DNA of 32,000 nucleotides from Candidatus Arthromitus sp. SFB-mouse-Japan (lineage in GTDB: Bacteria; Bacillota; Clostridia; Clostridiales; Clostridiaceae). The notes below the pieces were generated by a model. The model had not been told where the DNA came from. It was given only the letters and a program-made list of their open reading frames with translations, and did no database searches. The position numbers and the translations under genes are program-made. Shown one piece after another: positions 5,386 to 32,000 of this stretch (within the stretch, counting starts at the first letter, position 1; each line of letters opens with the position of its first letter). Location: assembly GCF_000270205.1 (NCBI RefSeq), contig NC_015913.1:1320001-1352000 (forward strand), given 5' to 3'.

Positions 5386-5433
5386 CTCTTTAATTTATTA
5401 ATGTTATTTTATATCACATAGAATTATTTTATA

Positions 5434-5462
5434 CAAAAAAAGCACCACATAAACGCAGTACT
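5434..5462 (-). terminator. intrinsic terminator after pfkA
   Basis: On the minus strand AGTACTGC pairs with GTGGTGCT (including G-U pairs, 5441-5462) and is followed by T7 (plus-strand A run 5434-5440). Confidence 0.5.
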
Positions 5463-6557: not shown

Positions 6558-6633
6558 AGTAATCCTCCCAATATCTGAGTACACTGAGATTAATTGTAAC
6601 ATAAAACATAATATGTGTAAATATATTATAATC

Positions 6634-7470: not shown

Positions 7471-7536
7471 TCTTGTATCCTCCTTTTAAAATTAAGTTAA
7501 ACTCCAATACATATATTATCATTTTATACTTACAAA

Positions 7537-7572
7537 TACAAAAAAACTTTAGGAAAATACTTCCTAAAGTTT
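7537..7572 (-). terminator. intrinsic terminator after the TPR protein gene
   Basis: The 12-bp perfect stem AAACTTTAGGAA (7544-7555) / TTCCTAAAGTTT (7561-7572) is followed on the minus strand by a T7 run. Confidence 0.85.
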
Positions 7573-7581
7573 TTACAAATT

Positions 7582-9456: not shown

Positions 9457-9537
9457 ATTTAAAAAACCTCATTCAACTACATTTTTATTATCTAGTTTGA
9501 TAATACTAAATACAAACTAATTACAAGGGGACTTAAA

Positions 9538-10440: not shown

Positions 10441-10465
10441 TAAAAATTTTAGAGGTTAGAGTAAA

Positions 10466-11806: not shown

Positions 11807-11823
11807 ATTAGGAGGTTTTTAAT

Positions 11824-12549: not shown

Positions 12550-12593
12550 TATAGTTTAAAATTTTAAAATTTTATATATTTGGAGTAATTTTC

Positions 12594-13838: not shown

Positions 13839-13858
13839 ATATTAAATCTACGCCTTTT
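13830..13858. terminator. intrinsic terminator at the convergence of the glycosidase and surface-protein genes
   Basis: The 11-bp perfect stem AAGGCGTAGAT (13830-13840) / ATCTACGCCTT (13846-13856) overlaps the TAG stop. It has a short T run on the plus strand and a weaker one on the minus strand. Confidence 0.7.
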
Positions 13859-13916
13859 AGTTATAACTATTTGCTTTTTTAGGAAAATCACATGTGTTAA
13901 ATTAAAATTTCAAATT

Positions 13917-14279
13917 CTACCACTCAAAATTAAGCTTTTGAGCTAAAGTTTTTAATTCATTTTCATTAACCATTCTATCAGCTAAAGCTTGAAGAGTTGC
14001 AGAAGATGATCCATAAACTGATAATAATTTTTTGTATTCTGCCACCCAGAATGCCTTACCTTGAGTATCAGAATCTCTATTAACTATAGCATTATATAAC
14101 GCTTCTACCTTATTTTCAGGAGTTGTATATAGCTTGTCAAATTCTTTTTCATTTATCATATTTAATAAGAATGCCCTTAAAGAAACTTTCTTACTAGTTA
14201 AATTTCCTAAATGGAACATATATCCATTCTCATCAGCTGGTCTATTAAATACGACATTATAAACATTAGCTAAATAACT
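13917..14279 (-). other. shared C-terminal module, copy 1 (two DUF4214-like repeats, 120 aa)
   Basis: Repeat 1 is YLANVYNVVFNRPADENGYMFHLGNL. Repeat 2 is KVEALYNAIVNRDSDTQGKAFWVAEY. The module ends ...LAQKLNFEW*. Confidence 0.7.
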
Positions 14280-17105
14280 TTGACCTTCAGATGTAGAATC
14301 AATTTTTACATTTTTAAGAACTAAAGTTTTAGTTTTGTTATTTTTATCATTGTAATTAATACTTATTTCAGTATACTCTTTTCCTGGAACTAATCCTTCA
14401 AGAACTACCTTTCCATTCTGGAATCTAGCTTTAACATTTGAGTATTGATCATTAGTTTCAATTACAGTTTTACCGTTCTTATCTTTATATTTAAATCCAA
14501 CAGGTGTAGGATTTGCACTACTTTCAGTATAAGAAACGCCTGAAGGTATAGTTACACTTATTGAAGTCGAACCTTTAGTTGAATTAGTACTAGTTACATT
14601 AACTGTAGTAGATCCAGTTGATGAAGAACTACTGCTTCCTCCAGATATTGTTCCACCACTACCTGATGAAGAACCAGGCTTTGTTGTTGCCACAGCTATA
14701 TTAGAATAAATATCTCGGACTTCTGAATTTCCCTCTTTGTATGAATATGTCACCACAAACTCATATTCTTTACCAGCATTCAATCCTGTAACTACCTTAG
14801 TTACTGGATCTTCTTTTATATCACTAGATGAAATATCAGCACCCTTTGCAATTTCCCATCCATCATTAGCACCTAATCCAGCTTTATATTCTCTGTAATA
14901 AATTATTCCACCTGTTATATTTTTAATCAAATCATTATTTCCGAAGAAATCCATATCAATTGTCAATCTAACTGAAGATGTTGTAGGATTATCAGCTTTA
15001 AGTAATACAGTTATAGGATTATAATTTGCAATTACTCCAGCACTATAAGTTCCTTGATACTTTCCACTAGTTACAACATTATGAATTGTATTAATTCCTG
15101 ATTTAAATTGATCAAATGTAACTCTATCACTACCACTAACTGGATCGTTCACTCTTACAGTTCCAGTAGGTACCGTAGAATTAAATTTAGCATCTATTTT
15201 AAATTGATCAGTTATATTTTCTGTTCCACTGTTAGTAGCTTGAACATTTGTTAAATTTACGGATTCAACTACTCCAGGAGTTAAGTCTACCTTTCCTTCA
15301 ACTTTCTTACCATTTATCTCAAGAATCCAAGAAGCATCAGTTTTATTTGGAACAGCTCCATTAAATTGAACATCAAATACTAAATTGTCACTCTTACTCT
15401 CCGTACTATTAAATGTAGCTTTAACACCATCAACTGTTAATACTAATTTATTGTAATCTACTTTATCAAGCAAATTATTTAATAATTTATTTCCACCAAC
15501 TATTGTAACTTGTCCTTCTGAAGAACTAGTTTTTACGAACTTAGATTGTACAGCAACACCATCAATCTTATCAGTAGAAATTATTAATGATGTTTGAACA
15601 GAATCAAATGATCCAGGAGTAAATTCCGCCCCTACAGGAATCTCAGTACCACTATTTGTTGGCTGTTGTTTATTTATATTTTCCTTATCCTTAACATCAT
15701 TATAATCAAACGTAACTGCTACTGTTTGATATCCATGTTTGAAATTCTCTAAATTCAAAGTAACTGAAGCATTAGTATTTATTCCATTAGTAAAATCTTT
15801 TACTCCATTTGTAATATCTACATATCTAAAAGTACTAGTAGTAACAGTACTTGTCGCCGAAGTAACACTAGCAGAACTAAAAGCATTGAAATACATTGCA
15901 CTTCCTACACCAGATACATTAAATGAATATTCACCAATCAATGCAACATCACTCGTAGTAGCATTAGCACCACCAGCAGGAGCTGTAAATCCAAACCCCA
16001 CTTTAGATGTAGGTACAAAATTATCTTCAAGAGTACTTATATCACTATCTACTTTTGCACTTTCTACACTTATCTTAACTTCTTTTGTTCCAGCTGTAGG
16101 TTGATCTACCTTTAACTTCGCCCCTCCAATTTTAGCTGTATTACCAGTAGTCTCATTTTTAACTGTTTGATTGTATTCTAATAACTTATCAGTTCCAACA
16201 CTTATTATATAATTATCCCTATCTGCAACATGTGATGGTAATTCTGGTTCTTTAGCCTCATTAAAATCATTTTTTAAAGTTGTTTTCAAAGTATTCATTG
16301 CAGTTGAATCATTTGTGGCTACAACACTCTTAAAAGTTGAAGATTTATCTTGAACTAAAACAATATCTGAAGTTAAAGTATACTCTTTATTATTCCCATA
16401 AGCAATCTCTACTTTTACCGTATCATTTAAATCCAAATTCCCATTTTTACCTAACTTTAACAAACTAACTTTATATTCACCAGTTGTTGAATCTTTAGTC
16501 AGTTCAACTGCTTTTGTTTTATCATTCCCCAAATAAGCAGTTACCGACTTAGGTTCGAAATTAGCAATTTCTTGTGAACCATTATTAAATTTAAGATCCT
16601 TTAATACAAGTTGTCCTGTAGTTATATCAGTTGTAAAACTTACAGAATCACTTGGCTTTTTAACTAAGCTTAAAGTATATTCTGCTGTCATCTTATTTGC
16701 GTAAACTATAGTAACTTTTCCAGTATAAATTCCTGGCGCAGTTATTCCACTTACATTAAATTTTCCAGTATTTTTATCCCATACACCCGTAGCTTTTGAT
16801 GCAGTCTCTTTAAGATCAGATCTCTCAGTAAAAGGTTTATACTCAAACTCTCCTGTAACATTACTTATAGTTTCAGGACTTATCTTAGTAAATGTAACCT
16901 GAGCTTTACCATCTGCACTCATATCTACAGATGTCTCTAGAGACTCTATTTCTAAAGTTTTTAACTTATCTAATAAATCTGTACTTAATTTAGAATCTTG
17001 TGCATGAGCTATAAAAGCTTGTCCACCTACTGCACCAACAGTAACCATTAAAGAATTCATTCCAAGTGCTGCTGCCAAAGCAAGCGCTACTCTTTTTTTA
17101 TTCAT
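13917..17105 (-). CDS. large cysteine-free secreted surface protein (S-layer-like candidate) with a C-terminal tandem DUF4214-like module
   Basis: ATG 17105 is 10 nt after GGAGG (rc of 17116-17120) and gives the signal peptide MNKKRVALALAAALGMNSLMVTVGAVGGQAFIAHA|QDS; the track start 17129 adds MKNGGKNN. There is no Cys in 1062 aa, and the composition is Thr/Ser/Asn/Lys/Val/Gly-rich. An FN3-like unit (VTGLNAGKEYEFVVTYSY) is followed by a Ser/Gly linker and a second FN3-like unit (LEGLVPGKEYTEISINY). The protein then ends in the shared 120-aa terminal module. Confidence 0.85.
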   Translation of the reverse strand: MNKKRVALALAAALGMNSLMVTVGAVGGQAFIAHAQDSKLSTDLLDKLKTLEIESLETSVDMSADGKAQVTFTKISPETISNVTGEFEYKPFTERSDLKETASKATGVWDKNTGKFNVSGITAPGIYTGKVTIVYANKMTAEYTLSLVKKPSDSVSFTTDITTGQLVLKDLKFNNGSQEIANFEPKSVTAYLGNDKTKAVELTKDSTTGEYKVSLLKLGKNGNLDLNDTVKVEIAYGNNKEYTLTSDIVLVQDKSSTFKSVVATNDSTAMNTLKTTLKNDFNEAKEPELPSHVADRDNYIISVGTDKLLEYNQTVKNETTGNTAKIGGAKLKVDQPTAGTKEVKISVESAKVDSDISTLEDNFVPTSKVGFGFTAPAGGANATTSDVALIGEYSFNVSGVGSAMYFNAFSSASVTSATSTVTTSTFRYVDITNGVKDFTNGINTNASVTLNLENFKHGYQTVAVTFDYNDVKDKENINKQQPTNSGTEIPVGAEFTPGSFDSVQTSLIISTDKIDGVAVQSKFVKTSSSEGQVTIVGGNKLLNNLLDKVDYNKLVLTVDGVKATFNSTESKSDNLVFDVQFNGAVPNKTDASWILEINGKKVEGKVDLTPGVVESVNLTNVQATNSGTENITDQFKIDAKFNSTVPTGTVRVNDPVSGSDRVTFDQFKSGINTIHNVVTSGKYQGTYSAGVIANYNPITVLLKADNPTTSSVRLTIDMDFFGNNDLIKNITGGIIYYREYKAGLGANDGWEIAKGADISSSDIKEDPVTKVVTGLNAGKEYEFVVTYSYKEGNSEVRDIYSNIAVATTKPGSSSGSGGTISGGSSSSSSTGSTTVNVTSTNSTKGSTSISVTIPSGVSYTESSANPTPVGFKYKDKNGKTVIETNDQYSNVKARFQNGKVVLEGLVPGKEYTEISINYNDKNNKTKTLVLKNVKIDSTSEGQSYLANVYNVVFNRPADENGYMFHLGNLTSKKVSLRAFLLNMINEKEFDKLYTTPENKVEALYNAIVNRDSDTQGKAFWVAEYKKLLSVYGSSSATLQALADRMVNENELKTLAQKLNFEW

Positions 17106-17789
17106 ATTATTTTTGCCTCCATTTTTCATTTAAAAATAATCTTATTTTTTCTTATCTCTATGTAAATATTAACTATGCAAATTATCATATAGAAGTGTCA
17201 AATCTTTTCTCAGATTGTCCCTTTACTTCCGCATATCCAACTAAAAATTATAATCAGTATTTCTTCATCTTTTGTTAAAACCATTCCATTAAAAAGGATT
17301 AATCTAATCCTTACTCGCAATCTTATATTAATGCTCCATTATACTAATTTAACAATACTTATTGCTTGTCCATTTATTAAATATAGTAACAACACATTGC
17401 TATAATAAAATTATTAAAATACTTTGAAAACAAAATCAAATCACTAAATTTTTTTCTATCAATTTTCGGTTTTAAGTCAAACTTTCCAGTCAAAGATAAA
17501 ACTTCTCCTCAAAAATTTTATCTACATTGTTATACACTATAAATTTACAGAATTCTTTTTATATGTTCCCTCCAATTAACTTAAACACAAAGAATCATAT
17601 TAATTTTTATAAAATAATAACAATTACATTACAATATTAATACATTTCGCATACTAAAGTCAATATATTTTATAACTATTTTACTATAATTTTGGTTATT
17701 AATCCATAATTATTTCTCTATTTATGCGTTATATTTTTTATAAAATTATGATAAAACTATAAAAGTGTTACACTACATTAACTTTTAAA

Positions 17790-17820
17790 AAAACAAAAAA
17801 GCCATTTGAAAAACCAAATG
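17790..17820 (-). terminator. weak intrinsic terminator after the GT2 gene
   Basis: The 6-bp stem CATTTG (17803-17808) / CAAATG (17815-17820) sits immediately after the stop. On the minus strand it is followed by GCTTTTTTGTTTTTTT. Confidence 0.4.
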
Positions 17821-17821
17821 A

Positions 17822-18805
17822 CTACACAAGTAAAAACAAATTATGAAGATGCCTATATCCAAAATCTAAAAGTTGCACCTCTATACCCTTAATAAATCCT
17901 AAGCCACTAAGTATTGCAGTCTTACTGCTATCATAACTAAATATGTCCTCACTCATAAAACAATTAAAACCATATTCATCAATAAATCTACACCTAATAT
18001 TCGGATAATACCTTGAAAATATGTGATTGATAATATTTATTATCTCTCTCTCATATACGATTATAATATTATCAAAACTTTCTATAACATTTTTAAATAA
18101 ATAAGTAAGTTTAAGCTCAATATTTCTATACAACATATCATATGAGTTACTAGAATCAAGAGAAGTGTTCTTTTTATGAACCCTATAGTTATAAACCACC
18201 TCAGGTAAATTTCCTATCTTATACCCAGCATTATGAAATTCTAAATAAATAAGCTTATCTTCAACAATCGAAAACTCTTTCTTAAACGGCATAAGTTCTA
18301 TAAATAAATCTCGCTTTCCAAATAATCCTCCCCCGTTTATACAAGACCCCGAATATATCCTAAGAAATTGATGATAATCATCTAAAACTTCATAATTAAG
18401 TGATTCCATCATCTTCATGTAAATCTCGCTACCATTCCCAAAACCTTTTAAGTAGCACCCTATAAGATCATAATTTCCCTCTTTTAAATATTTAAGCTGT
18501 TTCTCATACCTATAAATATCATTGATATCATCCCCATCACATCTTGCAATGTATTTACCATTAGAAAGTAGTACTCCCATTTTCATTGCTTCACATATTC
18601 CACCATTTCTTTTAGTAATAACCTTGATCCTCTTATCCATCTTCTCATATTCTATCAAAATATTATAACTTCTATCAGTTGAACCATCATCGATAAGAAT
18701 TATCTCAAGATTACTGTAACTCTGATTAATAATACTATCTAATGAATCTCTTAAATAAATTTCATTATTATAAACTGGAACAATAACACTTATTAAATCT
18801 TCCAT
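17822..18805 (-). CDS. family 2 glycosyltransferase (GT-A fold)
   Basis: The N-terminus SVIVPVYNNEIYLRDSLDSIINQSYSNLEIILIDDGSTD and the DXD motif (RCDGDD) are present. The SD AAGGAG precedes the ATG. Confidence 0.85.
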   Translation of the reverse strand: MEDLISVIVPVYNNEIYLRDSLDSIINQSYSNLEIILIDDGSTDRSYNILIEYEKMDKRIKVITKRNGGICEAMKMGVLLSNGKYIARCDGDDINDIYRYEKQLKYLKEGNYDLIGCYLKGFGNGSEIYMKMMESLNYEVLDDYHQFLRIYSGSCINGGGLFGKRDLFIELMPFKKEFSIVEDKLIYLEFHNAGYKIGNLPEVVYNYRVHKKNTSLDSSNSYDMLYRNIELKLTYLFKNVIESFDNIIIVYEREIINIINHIFSRYYPNIRCRFIDEYGFNCFMSEDIFSYDSSKTAILSGLGFIKGIEVQLLDFGYRHLHNLFLLV

Positions 18806-18837
18806 ATATAATTCTCCTTAAAATTATACAATACTTT

Positions 18838-18872
18838 ATAAAAATAGCTAGAATTCTTAAAAATTCTAGCTA
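18838..18872 (-). terminator. intrinsic terminator after the 298-aa orphan gene
   Basis: The 11-bp perfect stem TAGCTAGAATT (18845-18855) / AATTCTAGCTA (18862-18872) is followed on the minus strand by TTTTT. Confidence 0.75.
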
Positions 18873-19005
18873 AATCTACTATATATAAAATCAAATCCAA
18901 ATTTAAATTTGATATTAATAATTTACGTAAACCAAAAACTCATTTAATTACAATTTTTATAAAAATAATTCAAGAGTGATATATCACCAGTTCTAATAAA
19001 CAAAA

Positions 19006-19902
19006 CTATAAACTGCTAAGCTCATCAATATATCTTTTAAGTGCGTTATTATCTTCTCTTTTAAGTGCATATTCACATAAAACTGCTAGTACATTTCTTC
19101 CTACAAATCTGTATAATTTCTCATTTAATCCAAAATAATTCTTATATTTACTACCTATACTTAAAGCATATTTTTCTATAACTTCATCTAATTCCATATT
19201 TTTAATTTTAGAGTCAAGTATATAATAATCCCAAATAGGATTATCATCTAGTAAACTTAACCTATTTAATATAAATCCATCGATATCACTACATTCAATT
19301 AACTTTAAATAATCTCTTATCTTTATAATATTTATCTTAGTATTTACAAAATTCTTATATTGATAATTACTTATCCTATCTTCTAATACAACTTCATTAT
19401 TAATTAAATCATTAATAGTAAAATTTACATTACATGGTACTATCTCTTTTAGTATGAAATATAGTTCACTTAATTCTAAATAATCTTCTAAAAAAAGCTC
19501 ATCAGCATTTAATCTTATAGCTATCTTATTAGAACAATCATAATTATGCATGTTTGGATACGTTTTAGAACAAATTTTATATAAGTTTTTATCTTGAACT
19601 TCATCTATAAGATCAATATCTATTCCATAATCTCTATAGTATAGAAGATTCTCAACAAAACAATCTAAATCCTCATATATGTTATAATAATCTAGTACCT
19701 CTTCATAATCGTTTCCAAAAAAATAATTCTTCAACCCATCAGACACAGAATCTATAAGCTTTAATACTTTAATCCTCCTTTGTACTTTTAAAATTAAATT
19801 ACTATTTATCTTTTCTCTTCCTAAAAGTTCATCAATTATATAGTAGAAAAAGTTAATGTTCCCTATTAAAAATTTGGAATACGCATGTACAAAATCTCCC
19901 AA
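19006..19902 (-). CDS. orphan acidic cytoplasmic protein, no recognisable domain
   Basis: The TTG start is 6 nt after AAGGAG. There is no TM segment or signal peptide. The sequence is Asp/Glu/Tyr/Asn-rich and looks predominantly helical. Terminators bracket the gene on both sides. Confidence 0.6.
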   Translation of the reverse strand: MGDFVHAYSKFLIGNINFFYYIIDELLGREKINSNLILKVQRRIKVLKLIDSVSDGLKNYFFGNDYEEVLDYYNIYEDLDCFVENLLYYRDYGIDIDLIDEVQDKNLYKICSKTYPNMHNYDCSNKIAIRLNADELFLEDYLELSELYFILKEIVPCNVNFTINDLINNEVVLEDRISNYQYKNFVNTKINIIKIRDYLKLIECSDIDGFILNRLSLLDDNPIWDYYILDSKIKNMELDEVIEKYALSIGSKYKNYFGLNEKLYRFVGRNVLAVLCEYALKREDNNALKRYIDELSSL

Positions 19903-19964
19903 TTTATTCTCCTTAAAAATTAATCTTCTTTATATAGATAATTATTTAATAATTAAAATATACC

Positions 19965-19997
19965 CATAACAAAAGGCATGTACATAGTACACGCCTT
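19965..19997 (-). terminator. intrinsic terminator after the 719-aa surface protein gene
   Basis: On the minus strand AAGGCGTGTAC-TAT-GTACATGCCTT (19973-19997) forms an 11-bp stem with one G-U pair, followed by TTGTTAT. Confidence 0.6.
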
Positions 19998-20004
19998 AAT
20001 TTAT

Positions 20005-20370
20005 TTACTCTACTCTCAATCCAAGACTATATAGGAAGTTTCTAGTTTCTGATTCACCAAGCATTCTCTCAGATATAGCTTGCATTGCTGCAGTTCTATC
20101 TCCGATTTCTGCAATTGTCTCTTCTAGAGTCTTAACCCACCAAGCAAGTCCCTCAGCATCAGATGTCCTTCCTGTAACTGATCTATACATACGCTCTACA
20201 TATTTAGTATTATCTAAGTTCTTCTCCTTGTACTCTTGCTCATTAACTATATTTGATGTAAAGTAATTAACTGAAAACTCTTGAGAAGCAAGTTTTGATG
20301 TCCAATATGCCATTCCATCTGGGTCTCCATCTCTTAAGAAAAAGATATTGTAGAATCCTTCAATCCACTC
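20005..20370 (-). other. shared C-terminal module, copy 2 (121 aa)
   Basis: Repeat 1 is WIEGFYNIFFLRDGDPDGMAYWTSKL. Repeat 2 is YVERMYRSVTGRTSDAEGLAWWVKTL. The module ends ...LYSLGLRVE*. Confidence 0.75.
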
Positions 20371-22164
20371 TTTTGCATTTGTGATTTTCTTAGTTGTAAA
20401 TGGATCTATATCCATAGATAACTCTTGTCCATCTGTAAGAGTAACTATTAATTGAAGCCCTTTAGTTAAATTGTTTGGAATCAATCCATATAGCTTAACC
20501 AAATTTTCCTTAGTATCATAGAATGAACTTGCAATTGAATCTCCAGTAATTGAAACATCCTTTATAATTCCATCTGGATCATTAAATAAAATTTCAAATT
20601 CTGCCTTAGTTGGAGTAACATTCTTAAGTTCAAAAGTATCTAATAACTCTCCTTCAGCTGAAGCCTTACCTCCCATTGTTCTTATTGTCATAGGATTTAC
20701 AGAAATAGGATCATAATTTGTAAATCTCCTATTGATATCTCCATCTCCTGAATTAAATGTTACAATTAATTCCGTAAACTTATAATCAGTTCCTGATTTT
20801 AATCCAGTTATCAATATATCTTTATATTCAGCAGCATTCTTCTGAGGATCTTTTACAGTATCATCAAGTTTAGCATAGGATTGCATAACTCCAACTTTCT
20901 CAGCCTCTTTTAAAATCTTGCCATCATAAAGTTTCCCATTTGAATCCTTCATTTGTATTCTTTTAATTGTATCTTCTGGGTCATATAACGCATCATAAAA
21001 TACGACACCATCGTCTATAGGTCTTATATTTGCATGGTTATAGCCTTGAGATTTATCATCTTCTGAAGTTGGACCCACGTAGCTAACTATATTACTATCA
21101 CTTGAGACAACCTCACCATTTTCATTAAAATCCAAATCAACAAAGTAAGAAACAGTTGGCTTAATTGCTAAAGGATCTAATGGGTTTGTATTATCAATGT
21201 TTATATTTTCTGTTAGTAGTGGATCTAAATATGGGATTATACCTGTTTTACTATTTATACTTGTTTGGATAGATGTTTTTTGTACTACACTCTGCTCTAC
21301 AAGAGTTGGAAAAACTAAAGAACCCCCAAATTCCACATTAGTTATCTCAGCTCCTGTTGGTAAACCATAAATTTTAAAATAAACATTACCATCATTATCT
21401 ACAATTTTTGGAGCATTATAAGTATTCGTATACTGGTTCCTCTTAGCTGTTGTAGTATCCATAACTAAATCTTCAATTGATATCTTTTTAGTTTCTGTCT
21501 TGGCACCACTTGTATATGTTACATTAAGTGTAAAATCTTTATTTACCAATTTCCCTGACTCATCTTTCATACCAAGTGAATTTTGTAAAACTGTTGCAAG
21601 AGTTTCTTGTTGAATCAATTCAATTTGACTACCTTTACCTTGAGAAAGCAATGTTGCATTCTTAGAATATTCCTTAACAGCTGCATCAATGGTAGACTTT
21701 AATGCAGTTGCTACATTTCCAGAAAATTTAACTTTAATATAAGCATATCCACCATTAGATGTATCCCTTAAATAAGACTTTTGATATCCCTCTATATCTT
21801 CTCTTGTCACAACCGAAGTATTACGAATTACTCCGCCTTCAATTCCTAATATCGTTAAAAATTGTTCATCTTCATTTTGTGATGATGAAGACTTTACAAA
21901 ATCTTCTGTTCCCTTTAAAGGAAGTATTTCATTCTCATCATACTGACCATTACCATTAAAGTCAACTGCTCCAGGATTTGCTCCAGCTGGTATTTCTACA
22001 TTTGAAAGGTTAACTGTAAACTGATTATCCCCTTCAACATATCTACTTTGTTGTGCTGGTACAGCCCAAGCATATTTTGAACCAAAATGAACTATAACAC
22101 CAGAAGCAATAGATAAAGATAAAAATATCCCAATTAATCTTTTTGTAAATTTTTTACTAAACAT
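20005..22164 (-). CDS. cysteine-free secreted surface protein with a C-terminal tandem DUF4214-like module
   Basis: The SD AAGGAGG precedes the ATG. The signal peptide is ...HFGSKYAWA|VPAQQ. It contains a Ca-loop-like DFNGNGQYDENE and FN3-like units (ITGLKSGTDYKFTELIVTF; LYGLIPNNLTKGLQLIVTL). It ends in the shared terminal module, and I saw no Cys. Confidence 0.85.
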   Translation of the reverse strand: MFSKKFTKRLIGIFLSLSIASGVIVHFGSKYAWAVPAQQSRYVEGDNQFTVNLSNVEIPAGANPGAVDFNGNGQYDENEILPLKGTEDFVKSSSSQNEDEQFLTILGIEGGVIRNTSVVTREDIEGYQKSYLRDTSNGGYAYIKVKFSGNVATALKSTIDAAVKEYSKNATLLSQGKGSQIELIQQETLATVLQNSLGMKDESGKLVNKDFTLNVTYTSGAKTETKKISIEDLVMDTTTAKRNQYTNTYNAPKIVDNDGNVYFKIYGLPTGAEITNVEFGGSLVFPTLVEQSVVQKTSIQTSINSKTGIIPYLDPLLTENINIDNTNPLDPLAIKPTVSYFVDLDFNENGEVVSSDSNIVSYVGPTSEDDKSQGYNHANIRPIDDGVVFYDALYDPEDTIKRIQMKDSNGKLYDGKILKEAEKVGVMQSYAKLDDTVKDPQKNAAEYKDILITGLKSGTDYKFTELIVTFNSGDGDINRRFTNYDPISVNPMTIRTMGGKASAEGELLDTFELKNVTPTKAEFEILFNDPDGIIKDVSITGDSIASSFYDTKENLVKLYGLIPNNLTKGLQLIVTLTDGQELSMDIDPFTTKKITNAKEWIEGFYNIFFLRDGDPDGMAYWTSKLASQEFSVNYFTSNIVNEQEYKEKNLDNTKYVERMYRSVTGRTSDAEGLAWWVKTLEETIAEIGDRTAAMQAISERMLGESETRNFLYSLGLRVE

Positions 22165-22310
22165 TTTTTCCTCCTTGAAAGAATTAAATTCTAAACATTA
22201 ATCTTCCAAACCGATGAATTTTTAAATTTAAATTCATGTTATGTTCACATAATCGGAATATTTTTATTTTTATTTACTATATGTAATTATTTTTATTTGA
22301 TTTTTTATGT

Positions 22311-22670
22311 TTAAAAATTCAAAATTGATTCCATATATTCCTTACTTGATTCCATATTTAAAAACTTATCTAAAATTTCAAGTTTAGCTTCATTAATAAA
22401 TTCCGCACTTGATAATTTTGTATTAAACTCTTCCAATGTAATTATAGATAATCTTCCATTTATTACTTTTTTATTTGATAAAAAATAAATACTATCAACC
22501 ATTTCTTTAGGAGTTGTATTCATTCTATCAAATTCATCGCTTAAAATAATATCTACCAATATACTTTTCAAATCAACCGTATTGTCTAAAATATTATGTA
22601 AATTTTCGGAGTACTCTTTTTCAGTGGGATATCTTTTCAATACCTGATAATAAATTTTAACAAAATAACT
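22311..22670 (-). other. shared C-terminal module, copy 3 (degenerate, 119 aa)
   Basis: YFVKIYYQVLKRYPTEKEYSENL and MVDSIYFLSNKKVINGRLSIITL align position-for-position with the repeats of the other copies. The module ends ...MESILNF*. Confidence 0.55.
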
Positions 22671-23435
22671 CTGAATTTCTGAATCATGTTCCATTAAGAG
22701 TTTTGGAATAATAAATTTCATTTTATTTGAACTATTCTCATCAGCGATTATTTCCACATTTAAATACTGTTTACCCGGAACCAAATTCCCAATTATTATT
22801 TTTTTATTATTTTTATCATAATCAATACTTAAACCCGAAATTTTATTTTCATTAAAATTTGCTGTAATGGTAAACTTTGAATTTGAACTTATATTTATAT
22901 TTTCTGGAATATTAACTAGGCTAGTTATCCCCTTTATTGTATAATCATTTAGTGTAATAACATTTTCATAACTTTGATATAATCCATCATCTATATTAAC
23001 CACAAAAATATCACTCATATAAATTTTTTCGTTATTTTTAAGAAATATCTTCAAATATAAATCTTTATTTTTATCTAACAAATCCAAACTTTTGTATAAA
23101 CTACTCTCAAAATTTTCATCAATATTAATATTAAATCTCTCTATATAGCTATCTTCTGTATTAATATCTTTACTATGTATAGAAAACTTATACTCATCTA
23201 AATTTTTCAAATTAATTTCTTGTAAATTATACATAATATATTTAACCAAATCGTCTTTAGTTAATTTATTTGTATCAATGGATGATAAAAATATCTTGCC
23301 ATCCTTTATACCTACAAATTCCTTACCTAAAATTTTTATATCAACAGTTTTCAATATAAAATCTAAATTTATAGTTACTAATAGTATGCAAATAAAAGCG
23401 ACTATCCCAATAAGATTACGTAATTTATAGTTCAA
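22311..23435 (-). CDS. N-terminally anchored surface-protein paralog with a degenerate copy of the shared C-terminal module
   Basis: It uses a TTG start and has an uncleaved-looking anchor (LIGIVAFICILLVTINL). An FN3-like unit (IIGNLVPGKQYLNVEII) precedes a 119-aa tail that is collinear with the module, but its R-x-x-D-x-x-G-x-x-x-W cores are eroded. Confidence 0.7.
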   Translation of the reverse strand: MNYKLRNLIGIVAFICILLVTINLDFILKTVDIKILGKEFVGIKDGKIFLSSIDTNKLTKDDLVKYIMYNLQEINLKNLDEYKFSIHSKDINTEDSYIERFNINIDENFESSLYKSLDLLDKNKDLYLKIFLKNNEKIYMSDIFVVNIDDGLYQSYENVITLNDYTIKGITSLVNIPENINISSNSKFTITANFNENKISGLSIDYDKNNKKIIIGNLVPGKQYLNVEIIADENSSNKMKFIIPKLLMEHDSEIQSYFVKIYYQVLKRYPTEKEYSENLHNILDNTVDLKSILVDIILSDEFDRMNTTPKEMVDSIYFLSNKKVINGRLSIITLEEFNTKLSSAEFINEAKLEILDKFLNMESSKEYMESILNF

Positions 23436-23523
23436 TTATATACACCACTTCTCTAATAAACTTTAAAAAGCTAACTAATACTCTACAATAAAAGCATATT
23501 TCTACTCGTACAATACTCACATT

Positions 23524-24516
23524 TTAATTTTCTATATACTTATCCTTTAATACTAAATCAACCCAATTCAAATTATCCAAATACCAATTTATAGTACTCC
23601 TAATAGCTACCTCAAAATTGGTATCACATTTAAACCCCAGTTCAGAATATATTTTGCTACTATCAACTGAATATTTTATATCGTGACCCAATCTATCATC
23701 AATATAAGTTATGAGAGAATAATCCTTATTTAATATATCCAATATTTTCTTTATCAAACTTAAATTATCAATCTCATATCCTGAAGAAATATTATATATT
23801 TCTCCTGTTTTACCCTCTCTTATAATTTTATCCACTGCTATTGAATGATCATGTACATATACCCAATCCCTAACGTTACTTCCATCACCATATACAGGTA
23901 TTTTATTCTCTCTAACTGCATTTACAATAACAATAGGTATCAATTTTTCTGGAAACTGATAAGATCCATAGTTATTTGTGCATCTCGATATTGTCACATG
24001 AAGTTTATACATTCTAAAATAACTCATTACTAACATATCTGCTGATGCTTTTGAAACTGAATAAGGTGAAGATGGTTTTAATATATCACATTCTTTAAAA
24101 CTTCTTCCATCATCTAATCTTAAATCACCATATACCTCATCGGTTGAAATTTGATGGTATTTATTAACACCATACTTTAAACACATATCCATTAAATTTT
24201 TTGTTCCTATAATGTTTGTCTCCAAAAATACTTGTCCATTATAAATTGATTTATCTACATGAGATTCTGCAGCATAATTTATTACAACATCAAAACTCTC
24301 ATTTTGAAAAATATTCTCCAAAAACTTTATATCCAAAATATTCCCTCTATAAAATTTAAAATTTATATTTTGTCTAACAAGCTCTAAATTTTCAAGGTTT
24401 CCCGCATAAGTCAATGCATCTATACAAGTAATATCTATATTTCTATACTTGTTAATCATATAATGAATAAAATTACTTCCTATAAACCCTGCTCCACCTA
24501 CTACACAAATCTTCAT
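23524..24516 (-). CDS. rfbB: dTDP-glucose 4,6-dehydratase
   Basis: It has the SDR Rossmann motif GGAGFIGSNF, AAESHVDKS, STDEVYG and the catalytic YSVSKASADM. It also has NNYGSYQFPEKLIP and RLGHDIKY. The SD is AGGAGGG. Confidence 0.9.
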   Translation of the reverse strand: MKICVVGGAGFIGSNFIHYMINKYRNIDITCIDALTYAGNLENLELVRQNINFKFYRGNILDIKFLENIFQNESFDVVINYAAESHVDKSIYNGQVFLETNIIGTKNLMDMCLKYGVNKYHQISTDEVYGDLRLDDGRSFKECDILKPSSPYSVSKASADMLVMSYFRMYKLHVTISRCTNNYGSYQFPEKLIPIVIVNAVRENKIPVYGDGSNVRDWVYVHDHSIAVDKIIREGKTGEIYNISSGYEIDNLSLIKKILDILNKDYSLITYIDDRLGHDIKYSVDSSKIYSELGFKCDTNFEVAIRSTINWYLDNLNWVDLVLKDKYIEN

Positions 24517-24776
24517 AAAACCCTCCTACTAAAAATTAAATATAGAAATCTTCACACATATCTTATAATTTAAAATTACAAATTTATCTAATCCGTATAA
24601 CATTAATAAGTCTACTATAATTTCTAAATTTCTTCTACTTTAATGAACATAATTTCCTTGAATTAATTCTAAATCATAATATAATAATTCTTAATAATCT
24701 TCATAAATAATCACAATATTACCTTAAAAATATTTTAATGGAGATTATTTAATTTTTAATAAAGGTGAATTTATAA

Positions 24777-26516
24777 ATGAATAAGAAAACTTACATTGAA
24801 AACATACAAGCATCCATAAAAAATATTCCATGTGATTTAGTGATAAAAAATATAACAATCATAGATGTATTCCAAAATTCCTCATTTGTATCAGATGTTG
24901 CTATTCATAATGGTTATATTGTTGGCATTGGAAATTACTCAGGACAAAATGAAATAGATGGAAATAAAAAATATATTTGTCCAGGTCTTATAGATGCACA
25001 TGCCCATATAGAATCATCTCTATTAACACCAAAAGAATATTATAAAACTGCTCTTATACATGGAATAACTTCAATAATCATAGATCCTCATGAAATTGCT
25101 AACGTTCTCGGAATTGATGGAATCAACCTAATGATAGAACTATCCCAAAATATTCCATTTGATTTTTACTTTATGCTCCCTTCATGCGTACCTGCAACAG
25201 AATTTGAAAATTCTGGTTCCATATTAAAAAATTCAGATCTTTATCCATTTTATAAAAATAATAAAATCCTTGGACTTGCTGAAGTTATGGATCTCAGAGC
25301 TGTTCTTGAATGCAATGAAGATATGATAGATAAAATTTACGATGCTTATTTAAATAATAAAATTATAGATGGTCACTGTGCTGGATTCTCAATCGATCAT
25401 ATAAATGCATATACAACTGCTTATATAAAAACAGATCATGAATGTCACACTCATGAAGAATTAATTGAAAGAATTCGTCGAGGAATGTATGTACATATAA
25501 GAGAAGGTACTGTTGCCAAAAATTTAAGAGAACTAATAAAAGGTGTATCAATACACAATAGCAGAAAACTTTGTTTATGTACTGATGATAAACACATAGA
25601 TGATTTTGTAAAATATGGTTCCATAGATAATTCAATAAGAATGTGTATTAGAAGCGGTCTAAGCCCTGAAACCTCAATTCAAATGGCCACTATAAATACA
25701 TCTGAATGCTATAAATTAAATAAAAAAGGTGCTATCGCTCCTGGATATATTGCAGACTTTTTAATATTAGATTCACTACACGATTTTAAAATTTCATCTG
25801 TATATAAAAATGGAAATTTAGTTGTTAAAGATAATGAACTAATAAATAATGATGACTCTACTACAAAAATTTCATTAAAAACTCAAATAAATATTCCAAA
25901 TCTTGCAGAAGATCATTTTAAAATCTCTATCAAAAATAAATCATTCCTAAATGTCATAGAAATAATACCTAACAATTTAAAAACTAATCATCTTAAAATA
26001 GACATATCTTCTCTTAATTTGAAATGCAATGAATACTTTAATGCACATATCGAAAATGATTTATTAAAACTAGCTATTATAGAAAGACACAATAATACTG
26101 GAAATATTGGACTCGGAATCGTAAAAGGACTTATGTTAAACTCTGGAGCAATAGCCACAACAATCGCTCATGATTCTCATAATCTAATTGTTTGTGGTGC
26201 AAATGATCAAGACATGATTCTTGCATGTAATCACATAAAAGAAATCGGTGGTGGAATTACAATTGTAGATAATGGGAAAGTACTCTACTCATTAAGGTTA
26301 GAAATTGGAGGTCTTATTACAAATAGAAAAGCTTCGGATGTTATAAAAGATTTAGAAATTTTACACAACAATATTAACATACTGTCACCAAACTTAACCT
26401 TCAATCCATTCTTAACATTATCTTTCTTATCTCTTCCAGTAATTCCTAACATAAAAATTACTGATAAGGGTCTATTTGACACTATAAATTTTAAATTTAT
26501 AGATGTATGTGAATAA
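24777..26516 (+). CDS. ade: adenine deaminase
   Basis: It has the amidohydrolase metal motif GLIDAHAHIESS. The adenine-deaminase C-terminal domain is present (IERHNNTGNIGLGIVKG...TTIAHDSHNLIVCGANDQDM...GGGI). The length of 579 aa is typical. Confidence 0.88.
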   Translation: MNKKTYIENIQASIKNIPCDLVIKNITIIDVFQNSSFVSDVAIHNGYIVGIGNYSGQNEIDGNKKYICPGLIDAHAHIESSLLTPKEYYKTALIHGITSIIIDPHEIANVLGIDGINLMIELSQNIPFDFYFMLPSCVPATEFENSGSILKNSDLYPFYKNNKILGLAEVMDLRAVLECNEDMIDKIYDAYLNNKIIDGHCAGFSIDHINAYTTAYIKTDHECHTHEELIERIRRGMYVHIREGTVAKNLRELIKGVSIHNSRKLCLCTDDKHIDDFVKYGSIDNSIRMCIRSGLSPETSIQMATINTSECYKLNKKGAIAPGYIADFLILDSLHDFKISSVYKNGNLVVKDNELINNDDSTTKISLKTQINIPNLAEDHFKISIKNKSFLNVIEIIPNNLKTNHLKIDISSLNLKCNEYFNAHIENDLLKLAIIERHNNTGNIGLGIVKGLMLNSGAIATTIAHDSHNLIVCGANDQDMILACNHIKEIGGGITIVDNGKVLYSLRLEIGGLITNRKASDVIKDLEILHNNINILSPNLTFNPFLTLSFLSLPVIPNIKITDKGLFDTINFKFIDVCE

Positions 26517-26522
26517 AATATA

Positions 26523-26552
26523 TTGATTTATAATCACAATTAAGTATATAAT
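26523..26552 (+). promoter_or_regulatory. candidate sigma-A promoter of the codBA leader
   Basis: TTGATT (26523-26528), an 18-nt spacer and TATAAT (26547-26552) sit just upstream of the PyrR-type leader. Confidence 0.45.
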
Positions 26553-26571
26553 ATCTTTCAAGAAAACTAGT

Positions 26572-26676
26572 CCTTTAATTTTAGTCCAGAGAGACTAACA
26601 AGGCCTTATACGAATATGTTTTTTATATAATTTAAGATAATTCGTTTTTTGACGGCCTTTTGGTCGTTATTTTTTT
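26572..26676 (+). promoter_or_regulatory. PyrR-type transcription attenuator (binding loop, antiterminator, terminator)
   Basis: AGUCCAGAGAGACU (26583-26596) matches the PyrR binding-loop consensus ARUCCAGAGAGGYU at 13 of 14 positions. It sits in the hairpin TTAGTC-CAGAGA-GACTAA, with a lower stem CCTT (26572-26575) / AAGG (26600-26603). An alternative long-range helix pairs AAGGCC+CGAAT (26600-26615) with ATTCG+GGCCTT (26639-26659). The terminator is ACGGCC-TTTT-GGTCGT (26652-26667) followed by T7 (26670-26676). Confidence 0.7.
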
Positions 26677-26718
26677 ATGCTAGTTTACTAAAAATTTAAT
26701 ATAATTGGAGATGACTAA

Positions 26719-27960
26719 ATGAATAAAAACAAAATGTCAGATATAGATTATTCTTTATCTTCTGTAGATCCAAATGACAGAAAAGGATTCTTTTCAATAT
26801 TTGTTGTAATGCTAGGATTTACATTTTTTTCTGCAAGTATGCTAACAGGTGCAACTATTGGAGTCTCTCTCAGTTTAAATGACTTCCTAAAATCTATATT
26901 AATTGGAAACTTAATTCTATCTATATACACTGGATTATTATCATACATAGGATCTGATACTGGATTATCACTACATTTATTAACTAAATATTCATTTGGA
27001 TTAAAGGGATCTTATCTCCCATCATTTATTACAAGCATAACTCAAATAGGATGGTTCGGTGTAGGTATTTCAATGTTTGCAATACCCATATCAAATAGAT
27101 TCAATATAAATCTTTATGTTATTGTTCTAATAACAGGAATTCTAATGACTAGTACTGCCTACTTTGGAATGAAATCACTTACTATATTGAGTGCAATCGC
27201 TGTACCTGCTATTGCAATACTCGGTGGTTTATCACTATTTATAGCACTCCAATCAATTGGCGGATTCGGTAAACTATATAGTATCACTCCGACAAATCCA
27301 ATGAATTTAATAACTGCAATAACCTTATGTATTGGATCTTTTATAAGTGGGGGAACTGTTACTCCAGACTTTACTAGGTTTTCAAGGACAAAGAAAATCG
27401 CAGTATCAACAACAGTAATAGCTTTCTTTATCGGAAACTCCTTAATGTTCTTGTTTGGTGCAATTGGTGCAATGGTTACTGGAAATTCTGACATAGCCGA
27501 TGTAATGTTTTCTCAAGGACTTATTATACCAGCTATAATTGTACTCGGACTTAATATATGGACAACAAATGATAATGCAATATATACAGCAGGACTCGGA
27601 CTTTCTAATATAACAAAAGTTAAAAAGAGTAAATTGGTATTAATAAGTGGTTTAATTGGAACTCTAGGATCTATATGGATTAATAATAATTTTACAGCTT
27701 TCCTAACTTTATTGAACTCAATGCTGCCTCCAATTGGGGGTGTTGTCATCGCAGATTACTTTTTCATAAAAAAACTCAAATACAATAAAATAGAAGTTAC
27801 TAAATTCAAAGAGATTAATCCAATAGCTATAATATCATTCATTATTGGATTTTTAGTTTCAAACTTTATATCATTTGGCATACCTGCTATAAATGCTATT
27901 ATTTCAACAATAATTGTTTATATTATTGGAATGAAAATTTTCAAGGATAAGGATGTGTAA
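26719..27960 (+). CDS. codB: cytosine permease (NCS1 family)
   Basis: It is collinear with E. coli CodB along the whole length (for example [44 protein letters not shown]). It is a ~12-TM protein with SD GGAGA. Confidence 0.9.
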
Positions 27961-27962
27961 TA

Positions 27963-29231: not shown

Positions 29232-29262
29232 GAGGCGCAATAAGTGCATCTCTTTTATTTTT
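29231..29262 (+). terminator. intrinsic terminator after codA
   Basis: The stem AGAGGCGCA (29231-29239) / TGCATCTCT (29245-29253) has one mismatch and one G-U pair. It is followed by TTTTATTTTTATTT. Confidence 0.55.
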
Positions 29263-29302
29263 ATTTACACATAAAAGACCTCTAAGCTCCTTCTCAATCT
29301 AA

Positions 29303-29331
29303 TTGTAAACATTATCCTTTAATGATATAAT
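29303..29331 (+). promoter_or_regulatory. candidate sigma-A promoter of the GT2-helical-repeat gene
   Basis: TTGTAA (29303-29308), exactly 17 nt of spacer, then TATAAT (29326-29331). This lies 65 nt upstream of the ATG. Confidence 0.45.
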
Positions 29332-29396
29332 TTTATATCATTTGAAATAAATATAATAATAAATTTTTATAATTAAAATCTGAAAGGTGGTTAACT

Positions 29397-30803
29397 ATGA
29401 TAATCATAGATTCTATAATAAATAGTATCGATACGGATTATTTCAAGTTTAATTTAAATTTTCACAAATATGTACTTCACAAACTAAAGACAGATAATTT
29501 TCCAATTGATGAAAAATTTGAAAATAAATTAACCAAACGTATAAAACTTTTAAGCACAATAAATGGTACATGCCCTAGCATTTTAAAATTTTTCATAAAT
29601 GATGATTATATAAACTATAAAGATGACTTAACTAACGAGAACCTAATAGAATTAATAAATATTTTTTCTGATGATACACCAATAAAACTAAGTGTAAATC
29701 TAATCGTATTTAATGAAGAACGTTGTATTGAAAGATCCCTAAATGCTGTTTCCACTTTTGCTGATGAAATCCTAGTTTTAGATACAGGATCAACAGATAA
29801 TACGGTAAAAATAATTGAAGAAAAATTCCCAAATGTTAAATTATATAGAGACAAATGGAGAAAAGATTTTGCATATTCAAGAAACTTACTAATAGATAAA
29901 TCTACTAATGACTGGATCTTATCTATAGATGCAGATGAAACCCCAACAGATGAATTTTATCTCATAAAAGATGTAATTTCAATATTTAACAATTTTAATT
30001 CAAACGAGAAACATCCATTAGTATTTTCTCCTACAATAGATTCTCTTGGACAAAAAATAAATACCACAAAGAGAATATTTAATAAAAAACATGAAATGAA
30101 ATTTGATGGTAAAATTCATGAAGAAATCGTATCTAAAAATGAATCAGAAATCAATTATATCATGCTTAACTTAACACTTCTTCATGATGGATATCACCCA
30201 GAAATATTTAAAAACAAAAATAAGGCTGAAAGAAATACTGAAATACTCGAAAAGATGATAAAACTCGAACCTAATAAAATTAGATGGTATTATTTTCTCG
30301 GACGTGAAAAAAATATATTAGGACACGATATAGACGAATGTATAAAAATCTTAAAATCAGGATTAAAATTAAAACACACTCAAAATTCTATCGAAAACTT
30401 TTATTACAATATACTAACACTTTTAGCTAAAATAGCTGTATCACATAAGAAATATGATTTATTAAAAGAAGTCATAGATCTTATGGAATATGAAATACCA
30501 AACTCACTAGACAGCTTTTATTTTCAACTTATACTTGAGAATGATTCTGTAATGAGTGATAAATTTGATCAAATCAATTCAATGGTAAAATCTATAGGTG
30601 ATATCACAAATAAAGTTAATACAATAGATGGAAGTTATTCACATGTACTACACACTCTAGGGATTATATATCTAAGTTTCAGAGATTATACAAGAGCATT
30701 TTATTATTTCAATCAAATAACCTCACCTAAAAATATAGAAGCAATTAAATCTATTTTACTTCCTTTAAGAGCTCAAATAGATGATTTCCTAAAAAATAAA
30801 TAA
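29397..30803 (+). CDS. family 2 glycosyltransferase fused to a C-terminal TPR-like helical-repeat domain (SunS-like architecture)
   Basis: The SD AAAGGTGG precedes the ATG. The GT-A core is LSVNLIVFNEERCIERSLNAV...ILVLDTGSTDNT...KWRKDFAYSRN...SIDADE (about 29688-30200). It is followed by HDGYHPE...AERNTEILEKMIKLEPN..WYYFLGRE and about 200 aa of helical repeats. Confidence 0.8.
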   Translation: MIIIDSIINSIDTDYFKFNLNFHKYVLHKLKTDNFPIDEKFENKLTKRIKLLSTINGTCPSILKFFINDDYINYKDDLTNENLIELINIFSDDTPIKLSVNLIVFNEERCIERSLNAVSTFADEILVLDTGSTDNTVKIIEEKFPNVKLYRDKWRKDFAYSRNLLIDKSTNDWILSIDADETPTDEFYLIKDVISIFNNFNSNEKHPLVFSPTIDSLGQKINTTKRIFNKKHEMKFDGKIHEEIVSKNESEINYIMLNLTLLHDGYHPEIFKNKNKAERNTEILEKMIKLEPNKIRWYYFLGREKNILGHDIDECIKILKSGLKLKHTQNSIENFYYNILTLLAKIAVSHKKYDLLKEVIDLMEYEIPNSLDSFYFQLILENDSVMSDKFDQINSMVKSIGDITNKVNTIDGSYSHVLHTLGIIYLSFRDYTRAFYYFNQITSPKNIEAIKSILLPLRAQIDDFLKNK

Positions 30804-30836
30804 AAGTGAAGTTCATATGAACTTCACTTTATTTTC
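30803..30836. terminator. bidirectional intrinsic terminator between convergent genes
   Basis: A perfect 28-nt palindrome AAAGTGAAGTTCATATGAACTTCACTTT (30803-30830) is flanked by A/T runs on both sides. Confidence 0.85.
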
Positions 30837-30844
30837 ATTAAACA

Positions 30845-31207
30845 TTACTCAAATTTAATTCCTAATTTATCAGCCATCGATCTTACTTCATCAGTATCTA
30901 ACATTCTTGACACAACAGAAGCTCTAGCTTGACTTTGAGTTTCTCCAGACTGTATACCCTTCTCAATTTCAGCTGTCCAGAAAGTAACTCCTTCAGTCTC
31001 TCCAGCTCTATCTACTATAGCATACATAGCCTCAACAAACTTAGTGTTAGTCAAATTCTTCTCTAATAATTCAGGTGTAAATGAAAGTTGTCCTAAGAAT
31101 CCTTTTAAAGTTTCTTCCTTAGTAGCTAACTTATTTACCCAATACATTAAACCTTCTTTATCAGGCTCTCTATTAAAGAATGCTCTATATACTCTTGTAA
31201 CATATCC
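30845..31207 (-). other. shared C-terminal module, copy 4 (120 aa)
   Basis: Repeat 1 is YVTRVYRAFFNREPDKEGLMYWVNKL. Repeat 2 is FVEAMYAIVDRAGETEGVTFWTAEI. The module ends ...MADKLGIKFE*. Confidence 0.75.
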
Positions 31208-32000
31208 AGCAATACCTGTTTCACTTTGTGATTGAGTGCTTGTCTTAAATGTTGGAACAGATAAAGTTGTACTCTTATCTCCATATTTTAATGTTAATTT
31301 AAGATCTGTATATTCTGTATTAGATTTAAGATCTGATAACTCAATTACATTTTTCTCAACATTATAAGTAGCTTTGATCCCATTAACTCCAGTTCCTGAA
31401 ACTTCAACAGATATCATTTCCTTATCAGTATTTTTAATTGAAGCATTAACTACTGCTGTACTTGTAGTAACACCAGTTACACTAACATTTGAAGTTGAAA
31501 CTTCAACTTTTGTAGTTCCAGCTCTTCCAGTTGCATATCTAGTAATAGACTGTTGAGTTTTTGTTCCACTAGCTGGTATTGAACCAAACGAACCAACTTC
31601 CCCAGTTCTTATAGATGATACTCTATTTCCATTTTCTGTAGTTGAGAATTCAAATCTAAAGTCTTTAGATTTTCCTGCTTCAATTCCTGTTATAGTAATT
31701 TCAACCATTTCGGAAGCTGACTCAATTTTACTTTCACTTCCTTGTATAACAGTATTATCTCTACTCTCTAACAATGGATAGCTAAAATTATAGACTCCGG
31801 ATACGCTACCATTACCATTAACATCTAAACCTTTAACAACTCTGTAATTTGTTTCAAGCTTAACCTTTGAATCATCTATTTTCTCGTAGTTTCCACCATT
31901 ATTTACATAAACATTAACACCATTTATAATATCATCAGCATCCTTAATTCTTCCATAGAATTTTACCCCACCTGGAATTTGCTCATATTTAAGCTCTGAA
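30845..32000 (-). CDS. cysteine-free surface protein with the C-terminal tandem DUF4214-like module, 5'-truncated by the window edge
   Basis: The track begins this ORF at TTG 31774. I translated 31775-31999 in the same frame and found no stop and no start (...SELKYEQIPGGVKFYGRIKDADDIINGVNVYVNNGGNYEKIDDSKVKLETNYRVVKGLDVNGNGSVSGVYNFSYPLLESRDN...), so the gene runs off the right edge. It has an FN3-like unit (LSDLKSNTEYTDLKLTLKY) followed by the shared terminal module. Confidence 0.8.
   Translation of the reverse strand, partial: SELKYEQIPGGVKFYGRIKDADDIINGVNVYVNNGGNYEKIDDSKVKLETNYRVVKGLDVNGNGSVSGVYNFSYPLLESRDNTVIQGSESKIESASEMVEITITGIEAGKSKDFRFEFSTTENGNRVSSIRTGEVGSFGSIPASGTKTQQSITRYATGRAGTTKVEVSTSNVSVTGVTTSTAVVNASIKNTDKEMISVEVSGTGVNGIKATYNVEKNVIELSDLKSNTEYTDLKLTLKYGDKSTTLSVPTFKTSTQSQSETGIAGYVTRVYRAFFNREPDKEGLMYWVNKLATKEETLKGFLGQLSFTPELLEKNLTNTKFVEAMYAIVDRAGETEGVTFWTAEIEKGIQSGETQSQARASVVSRMLDTDEVRSMADKLGIKFE

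Follow-up and report, generated by a model that had tools for sequence, protein, structure and literature searches.

How does a bacterium that has no sortase and cannot be cultivated hold and present its surface antigens? This question is raised by a stretch of 32,000 nucleotides in the genome of Candidatus Arthromitus sp. SFB-mouse-Japan (contig NC_015913.1, positions 1,320,001 to 1,352,000; referred to below as the window). Segmented filamentous bacteria (SFB) are a model commensal for the induction of Th17 cells in the gut, and the products of four genes in the window, named here A, B, C, and D, end in one shared C-terminal module, the tail. The dominant CD4 antigen of SFB (A) and a dominant CD8 antigen (D) both carry it. 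We found that the tail belongs to the DUF4214 family, that it is predicted to fold like the linker domains of phycobilisomes (PBS), and that in A and B it is conserved beneath fast-evolving heads; anchoring is its best-supported function. The finding itself was already known, because the family was described in 2012 and anchoring was proposed in 2020 and again in 2025.

The first description listed 19 secreted SFB "Cluster.1" proteins, plus those of "Cluster.3," with C-terminal PF13946-like regions whose tandem helices resemble the PBS linker 2KY4; one member of these clusters had an FN3 domain, and the heads were polymorphic between mouse strains (Pamp et al., 2012; PMC3371716). Later work reported that SFB lack sortase, that conservation of the protein P3340 is limited to the signal peptide and the C-terminus, and that this protein is located at the SFB wall by immuno-electron microscopy (immuno-EM); at least 14 SFB surface proteins were postulated to be anchored via the DUF4214 motif (Jonsson et al., 2020; PMC7474095). 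A cryo-electron tomography study of 2025 described DUF4214 as a likely surface-anchoring domain (PMC12780176). An earlier reading of the window, made from its letters without database searches (the sequence-only reading), had presented the tail as a candidate new anchoring system. This novelty has to be given up, as the same SFB family appears in PMC3371716 and the anchor postulate in PMC7474095 and PMC12780176. The numbers of tail proteins per genome used below are the published ones, 19 (PMC3371716) and at least 14 (PMC7474095).

The shared tail and its predicted fold

The four open reading frames (ORFs) named in the sequence-only reading were all found at the coordinates given for them, on the minus strand (Table 1). 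Their last ~121 amino acids (aa) align collinearly, without large gaps, up to the final residue. Pairwise identity of the tails is 28–33% among A, B, and D and 10–23% for C; in the 100 aa upstream of the tails it is 12–21%. Hidden Markov models (HMMs) built by leaving one sequence out recovered the similarity of the four as well; the E values lay between 1e-20 and 1e-29 for A, B, and D, and C gave 1.5e-6 (24.8 bits). The assignment to DUF4214 (PF13946; gathering cut-off 23.2 bits, applied to the whole-protein score) stood for A (38.2 bits), B (51.5 bits), and D (53.7 bits), with two repeats in each, but not for C, which reached 16.3 bits (E 0.011). A terminal R-M-(L/V)...E motif had been read as a separate end piece; it is present, but the consensus of multi-copy relatives identifies it as the second half of the second DUF4214 repeat.

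The position of the module is constant. All 19 tail copies in the six loci examined, which represent five SFB-like lineages, end exactly at the C-terminus of their ORF. A search with the tail of A alone found two loci in metagenome-assembled genomes of distant SFB-like bacteria.

The fold was examined by modeling the last 215 residues of A with AlphaFold2 (AF2). The model (predicted local distance difference test, pLDDT, 87.8) consists of a beta-sandwich, with its strands in residues 1–87, and then eight helices. A Foldseek comparison with the PDB, a check that had been proposed for the tail, placed PBS linker domains first (2ky4, 3osj, 7sc8, and 3pru, with a probability of 1.0), with E values of 6.6e-4 for 2ky4 and 6.9e-4 for 3osj and TM-scores of 0.54–0.57 on the target. 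The tail profile matches the REP domains of ApcE by sequence alone (E 1.4e-10). The model of C, for which the alignment included the other tails, had a pLDDT of 85.7 and the same architecture as that of A; its helical part matched PBS linkers in Foldseek (9v7g_X, 3nph). The AF2 model, the Foldseek matches, and the ApcE profile match together place the tail in the PBS-linker-like helical fold superfamily, and the models give it the same all-helical fold as the PBS linker domains.

Could the likeness of the tails arise by chance, or from the low-complexity composition of an AT-rich genome? The window has a G+C content of ~28%, and the Pfam score of C is below the cut-off, which is what such an explanation has in its favor. 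It is refuted by the Pfam scores of A, B, and D, which lie above the gathering threshold, by the leave-one-out HMM results, and by the 19,055 representatives that an exhaustive search with the tail profile recovered at E ≤ 0.001. The fold predictions for A and C, which are confident and concordant, also speak against it, and we give it practically no credence.

The unit before each tail had been described as FN3-like. It is a beta-sandwich in the AF2 models of A and C, but there was no match to Pfam fn3 (PF00041) at E ≤ 1 in the four proteins, and the best Foldseek matches for the beta unit of the C model were Ig-like (dystroglycan, RPTP Ig, and titin Ig). We therefore dropped the FN3 label and call the unit an Ig-like beta-sandwich. 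The G-L-x-P-G-K-x-Y signature said to precede every tail is complete in A and C but incomplete in B and D.

Antigen orthologs, heads, and tails

The product of A is 74% identical to SFBmNL_01308 of SFB-mouse-NL and 62% identical to a protein of SFB-rat-Yit, and it has a Sec-type signal peptide. The published peptide of the major Th17 antigen SFBNYU_003340 is LVFDVQFSGAVPNKT (PMC6642154). This peptide occurs exactly in the mouse-NL ortholog of A, and A itself reads LVFDVQFNGAVPNKT at 15339–15383, with a single S to N change. Because the peptide is exact in the mouse-NL ortholog and near-identical in A, we identify A as the ortholog of P3340/SFBNYU_003340. The change lies at the 7B8/I-Ab epitope and might alter recognition by 7B8 T cells.

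Across SFB lineages, the tail is the most conserved block of A (64–88% identity), while the heads fall to 10–40%. Gene order and gene sizes at the SFB-mouse-NL locus are those of the window, and by blastn the DNA of the two is 99.5% identical over 3916–15565 and 99.8% identical over 16627–27106. The sole part of 3916–27106 without a blastn match to SFB-mouse-NL is a cassette of ~1.06 kb in the head of A (15566–16626). Residues 151–500 of A are 20–42% identical to mouse-NL and 40–76% identical to rat-Yit. This pattern suggests a mosaic allele formed by cassette replacement through recombination. Exact-sequence look-ups for the product of A returned no record of this allele, the nearest sequence being 95% identical.

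Gene B also encodes a Sec-type signal peptide. Its tail is 97% identical to that of rat SFB and 86% identical to that of a distant SFB lineage; the corresponding values for the head are 77–92% and 55–77%. The description of these proteins as a variable head on a constant tail is thus upheld by the fast-evolving heads and conserved tails of A and B.

Gene D is cut by the end of the window. The full-length ortholog at locus L004 (11448–14393) encodes 981 aa with a signal peptide, is 100% identical to D over the 384-residue overlap, and holds SGLIYVTL at residue 225. D is the C-terminal third of the ortholog of SFBNYU_003240, from which the CD8 epitope SGLIYVTL derives. The two dominant antigens of SFB, for CD4 (A) and CD8 (D) T cells, are thus encoded 10 genes apart in one locus and have the same tail. 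The four proteins had been called unrelated outside the tail, which is only partly true: over 450 aa, the head of B shows 23% identity to that of D (E 1.4e-13), which marks the two as distant paralogs. In their alignment, the stretch of D around SGLIYVTL lies opposite "GNVYFKIYGLP" in B.

Gene C is the divergent member. All four proteins had been taken as exported; this holds for A and B and, through its ortholog, for D, but in C the only such feature is a hydrophobic stretch at the N-terminus that lacks an obvious signal-peptidase site and is probably a membrane anchor. Its tail is a degenerate copy, because the second repeat lacks the conserved R and W, and C shows no excess of tail over head conservation. 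With an SFB genome as their source, signal peptides in A, B, and the D ortholog, and tails at the extreme C-terminus, the genes of the window agree with the Cluster.1/3 surface proteins.

Possible functions of the tail

Evidence on function comes from relatives outside SFB. The best non-SFB matches have three to five tandem DUF4214 modules, exactly three in 81 of the 147 closest relatives, and the N-termini of most of these 147 proteins are signal-peptide-like in a crude test. The two named relatives are clostridial. Among the 67 closest multi-copy relatives, the partner domains that act on peptidoglycan were YkuD (4), VgrG3-like lysozyme (3), GH25, CHAP, and glucosaminidase (2 each), and VanY, M23, NlpC/P60, and polysaccharide deacetylase (1 each). 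The adhesin-type partners were LRR_4 (8), the BspA repeat LRR_5 (6), Big_2 (5), and G5 (1), and choline-binding repeats occurred as a partner in six cases. One example is WP_257915282.1, a hydrolase of Clostridium chrysemydis, in which DUF4214 modules are combined with SH3_3 and a VgrG3-like C-terminal domain. This spectrum of partners is the one that would be expected of a Gram-positive wall-targeting module.

The four proteins offer no other obvious means of attachment. As the sequence-only reading had noted, a sortase-type LPXTG motif followed by a C-terminal hydrophobic tail was not found in any of them, and SLH, CWB2, LysM, GW, and choline-binding repeats gave no Pfam match at E ≤ 1. The Th17 antigen has been described as abundant on the surface, as "likely cell wall-associated," and as masked by, or beneath, a hair-like layer (PMC12780176). 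This one study also reports DUF4214 in peptidoglycan hydrolases of SFB.

Taking gene identity, fold, conservation pattern, and the surface or wall location of the A ortholog from the present results and the literature, we infer that the tail itself is an anchor with a ligand in the wall, and we consider this fairly likely. The four genes are members of the SFB family of Sec-exported surface proteins that is already in the literature, each protein having a fast-evolving head of beta-sandwich domains and a single C-terminal two-repeat DUF4214 module. In an organism with none of the sortase, SLH, or CWB2 systems, this module would keep the protein attached to the envelope without a covalent bond. 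A conserved component of the wall, peptidoglycan or else an accessory glycopolymer, would serve as its ligand, and the head would stay free to vary under host immune pressure.

A different role would be that of a protein–protein docking or self-assembly module, which attaches the heads to a common scaffold or to the S-layer or hair-like layer and does not bind wall glycans. The PBS linker and ApcE REP domains, which among solved structures are nearest to the tail in both sequence and fold, sit inside phycobiliprotein rings; the tails are not basic; and the three-module arrangement of 81 of the 147 relatives would fit a pseudo-trimeric assembly. Both an S-layer, with a spacing of ~8 nm, and a hair-like layer have been seen on SFB (PMC12780176). 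However, in relatives the module is joined to numerous enzymes that act on peptidoglycan, which suits wall targeting more than the building of a lattice, and the Th17 antigen is located beneath the hair-like layer, not within the hair-like structures themselves (PMC12780176). With 14–19 or more tail proteins per genome, there are also too many for all of them to be lattice subunits (PMC3371716; PMC7474095). We regard docking as rather unlikely.

A DUF4214 protein from outside the Gram-positive bacteria speaks for a role at the cell surface, as in the anchor model, but bears on a further explanation as well. In Pseudomonas putida, the RTX-DUF4214 protein Psh is exported by type I secretion and confers phage resistance, and those who described it propose a surface action in which receptors are masked (bioRxiv 10.64898/2026.09.02.748959). 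DUF4214 forms the C-terminal part of this type I secretion substrate, the SFB tail is always at the extreme C-terminus, and P3340 passes into host cells in vesicles (PMC12780176; PMC7474095). These observations would suit a tail that is an export, sorting, or folding signal, for example for an accessory secretion or maturation step, after which the proteins are released. A, B, and the D ortholog, however, have ordinary Sec signal peptides. Among 133 relatives, the module block is near the N-terminus in 20, in mid-protein in 26, and makes up the whole protein in 14, arrangements that are incompatible with a C-terminal signal. Immuno-EM and immunogold labeling also place P3340 on the wall (PMC7474095; PMC12780176). 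A sorting role is in our view very improbable.

Several points weigh against the tail as a wall anchor. The tails are acidic to neutral, with isoelectric points (pI) of 4.6–6.8. The anchoring modules of SLH and CWB2 tend to be basic. Electrostatic binding of the tails to anionic polymers, which was also considered, is unlikely, the tails being acidic to neutral. SFB proteins have one module versus three or more in most relatives; SLH and CWB2 anchors, too, consist of three repeats. C combines a degenerate tail with its own membrane anchor, and the sole structurally characterized relatives, the PBS linker domains, have proteins, not glycans, as their binding partners. The contact of Psh with O-antigen was modeled, not measured (bioRxiv 10.64898/2026.09.02.748959), and our literature search found no binding experiment for any DUF4214 module.

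Neighboring genes and comparison with known systems

The coordinates of the genes, tails, and neighboring features are shown in Table 1. The sugar-nucleotide and glycosyltransferase genes said to lie near the four genes are indeed there, namely RmlB, a family 2 glycosyltransferase (GT2) next to A, and a SunS-like GT2. The last of these resembles the SunS family of peptide S-glycosyltransferases and could glycosylate a peptide or protein substrate.

Table 1. Positions of the four tail-bearing genes, parts of their products, and neighboring genes in the window
Feature	Position	Strand	Remarks
Gene A	13917–17105	minus	1062 aa from MNKKRV; annotated "DUF4214 domain-containing protein" in SFB genomes
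Tail of A	13920–14282	minus	Two-repeat DUF4214 helical module, PBS-linker fold (predicted), 121 aa
Ig-like beta-sandwich before tail of A	14304–14564	minus	Contains GLVPGKEY
Th17 epitope variant in A	15339–15383	minus	I-Ab-restricted; S to N at one position
Variable cassette in head of A	15566–16626	minus	No blastn match to SFB-mouse-NL
Gene B	20005–22164	minus	719 aa; tail 20008–20370
Gene C	22311–23435	minus	374 aa; tail 22314–22676
Gene D	30845–>32000	minus	Cut by window end, C-terminal 384 aa present; tail 30848–31210
MurT/GatD peptidoglycan (lipid II) amidation genes	10466–12549		Beside NAGPA-family gene
Exported phosphodiester glycosidase (NAGPA family)	12594–13838	plus	Convergent with A
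GT2 glycosyltransferase	17822–18805	minus	Directly upstream of A; Pfam 113.9 bits
298-aa protein	19006–19902	minus	No family match; between B and GT2
dTDP-glucose 4,6-dehydratase (RmlB)	23524–24516	minus	After C; NCBIfam TIGR01181 417 bits, cut-off 365
SunS-like GT2	29397–30803	plus	468 aa; convergent with D; Pfam GT2; TIGR04195 205 bits, below cut-off 350

Rat SFB and two lineages that are more distant (loci L008 and L010) have the gene order C-B-[methyltransferase/GT2]-A-...-NAGPA-GatD-MurT as well, and a fifth SFB-like lineage lacks the C-B-A-NAGPA-GatD-MurT context. The GT2 next to A is kept in four lineages (the mouse, rat, L008, and L010 loci). The position of the 298-aa protein is occupied by a TylF-like methyltransferase in L008 and L010. 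The segment between B and A varies: mouse and rat SFB have one GT2 and the 298-aa protein, and L008 (2685–9560) has the TylF-like methyltransferase and four GT2 genes. A second A-like paralog is present in L008 at 13428–16709. Such a neighborhood is consistent with a glycan ligand of the tail or with glycosylation of the proteins themselves.

On the other side of A, the MurT/GatD and NAGPA-family genes adjoin it in four lineages. Wall polymers with phosphodiester linkages are possible substrates of the glycosidase; a connection between this enzyme and the ligand of the tail is speculation. A and the convergent NAGPA-family gene have a bidirectional terminator-like hairpin in common, and another terminator-like hairpin follows B (19997–19973). 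An Rfam scan of the window gave no match, and a promoter scan of the window gave a result no better than that for shuffled sequence.

A broader reading joins the anchor to this neighborhood, and as a whole we put it forward tentatively, as possible but somewhat short of probable. DUF4214 may be a class of non-covalent wall-binding module in Clostridia, with the PBS-linker fold, beside SLH, CWB2, and choline-binding repeats. In SFB, all surface proteins may be held by its single copies, among them the immunodominant CD4 and CD8 antigens and the subunits of the S-layer and hair-like layer. The interleaved, variable glycosyltransferase/methyltransferase cassette may synthesize or modify the ligand, which would be a glycopolymer specific to the lineage.

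A proven ligand of the tail would define a new wall-anchoring chemistry, would help to identify the subunits of the S-layer and of the hair-like layer, and would give a handle to display or purify SFB surface proteins. The anchoring idea has been in the literature since 2012–2020; the contribution made here is supporting comparative evidence, which agrees with the published proposals and makes no discovery beyond them.

The closest known system is that of the SFB Cluster.1/3 proteins, which come from the same organism, are the same proteins, and have the same architecture of signal peptide, variable head, and PF13946-like C-terminus, with no essential difference (PMC3371716; PMC7474095). Compared with the Cluster.1/3 protein of SFB-mouse-NL, the A allele of the window differs in its central cassette. 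The orthologs of P3340/SFBNYU_003340, the major Th17 and B-cell antigen, and of SFBNYU_003240, the CD8 antigen, are A and D; A differs from P3340 by the S to N change in the epitope and by the replacement of head residues 151–500.

More distant likenesses exist outside SFB. Psh of P. putida also contains DUF4214 and is secreted; its proposed site of action is the surface of the producing cell, which it would coat. It differs from the SFB proteins in its Gram-negative host, its export by a type I secretion system, and its RTX head, and its binding to O-antigen comes from modeling only. The PBS linker domain (PF00427; 2KY4, 3OSJ, 3PRU, and the ApcE REP domains) has an all-helical two-repeat fold in common with the modeled SFB tail. 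PBS linkers, however, are cytoplasmic and bind phycobiliprotein rings, whereas the SFB module is extracellular and ends Sec-exported proteins of a non-photosynthetic Firmicute.

Unlike SLH, CWB2, and choline-binding modules, to which it has no sequence or fold relationship (no match at E ≤ 1), the SFB tail is present in single copy and is acidic to neutral. Like them, DUF4214 is found on adhesin-like proteins and on peptidoglycan hydrolases, often in three tandem copies in the relatives, and the design is the same, a variable functional head joined to a constant wall-retention module.

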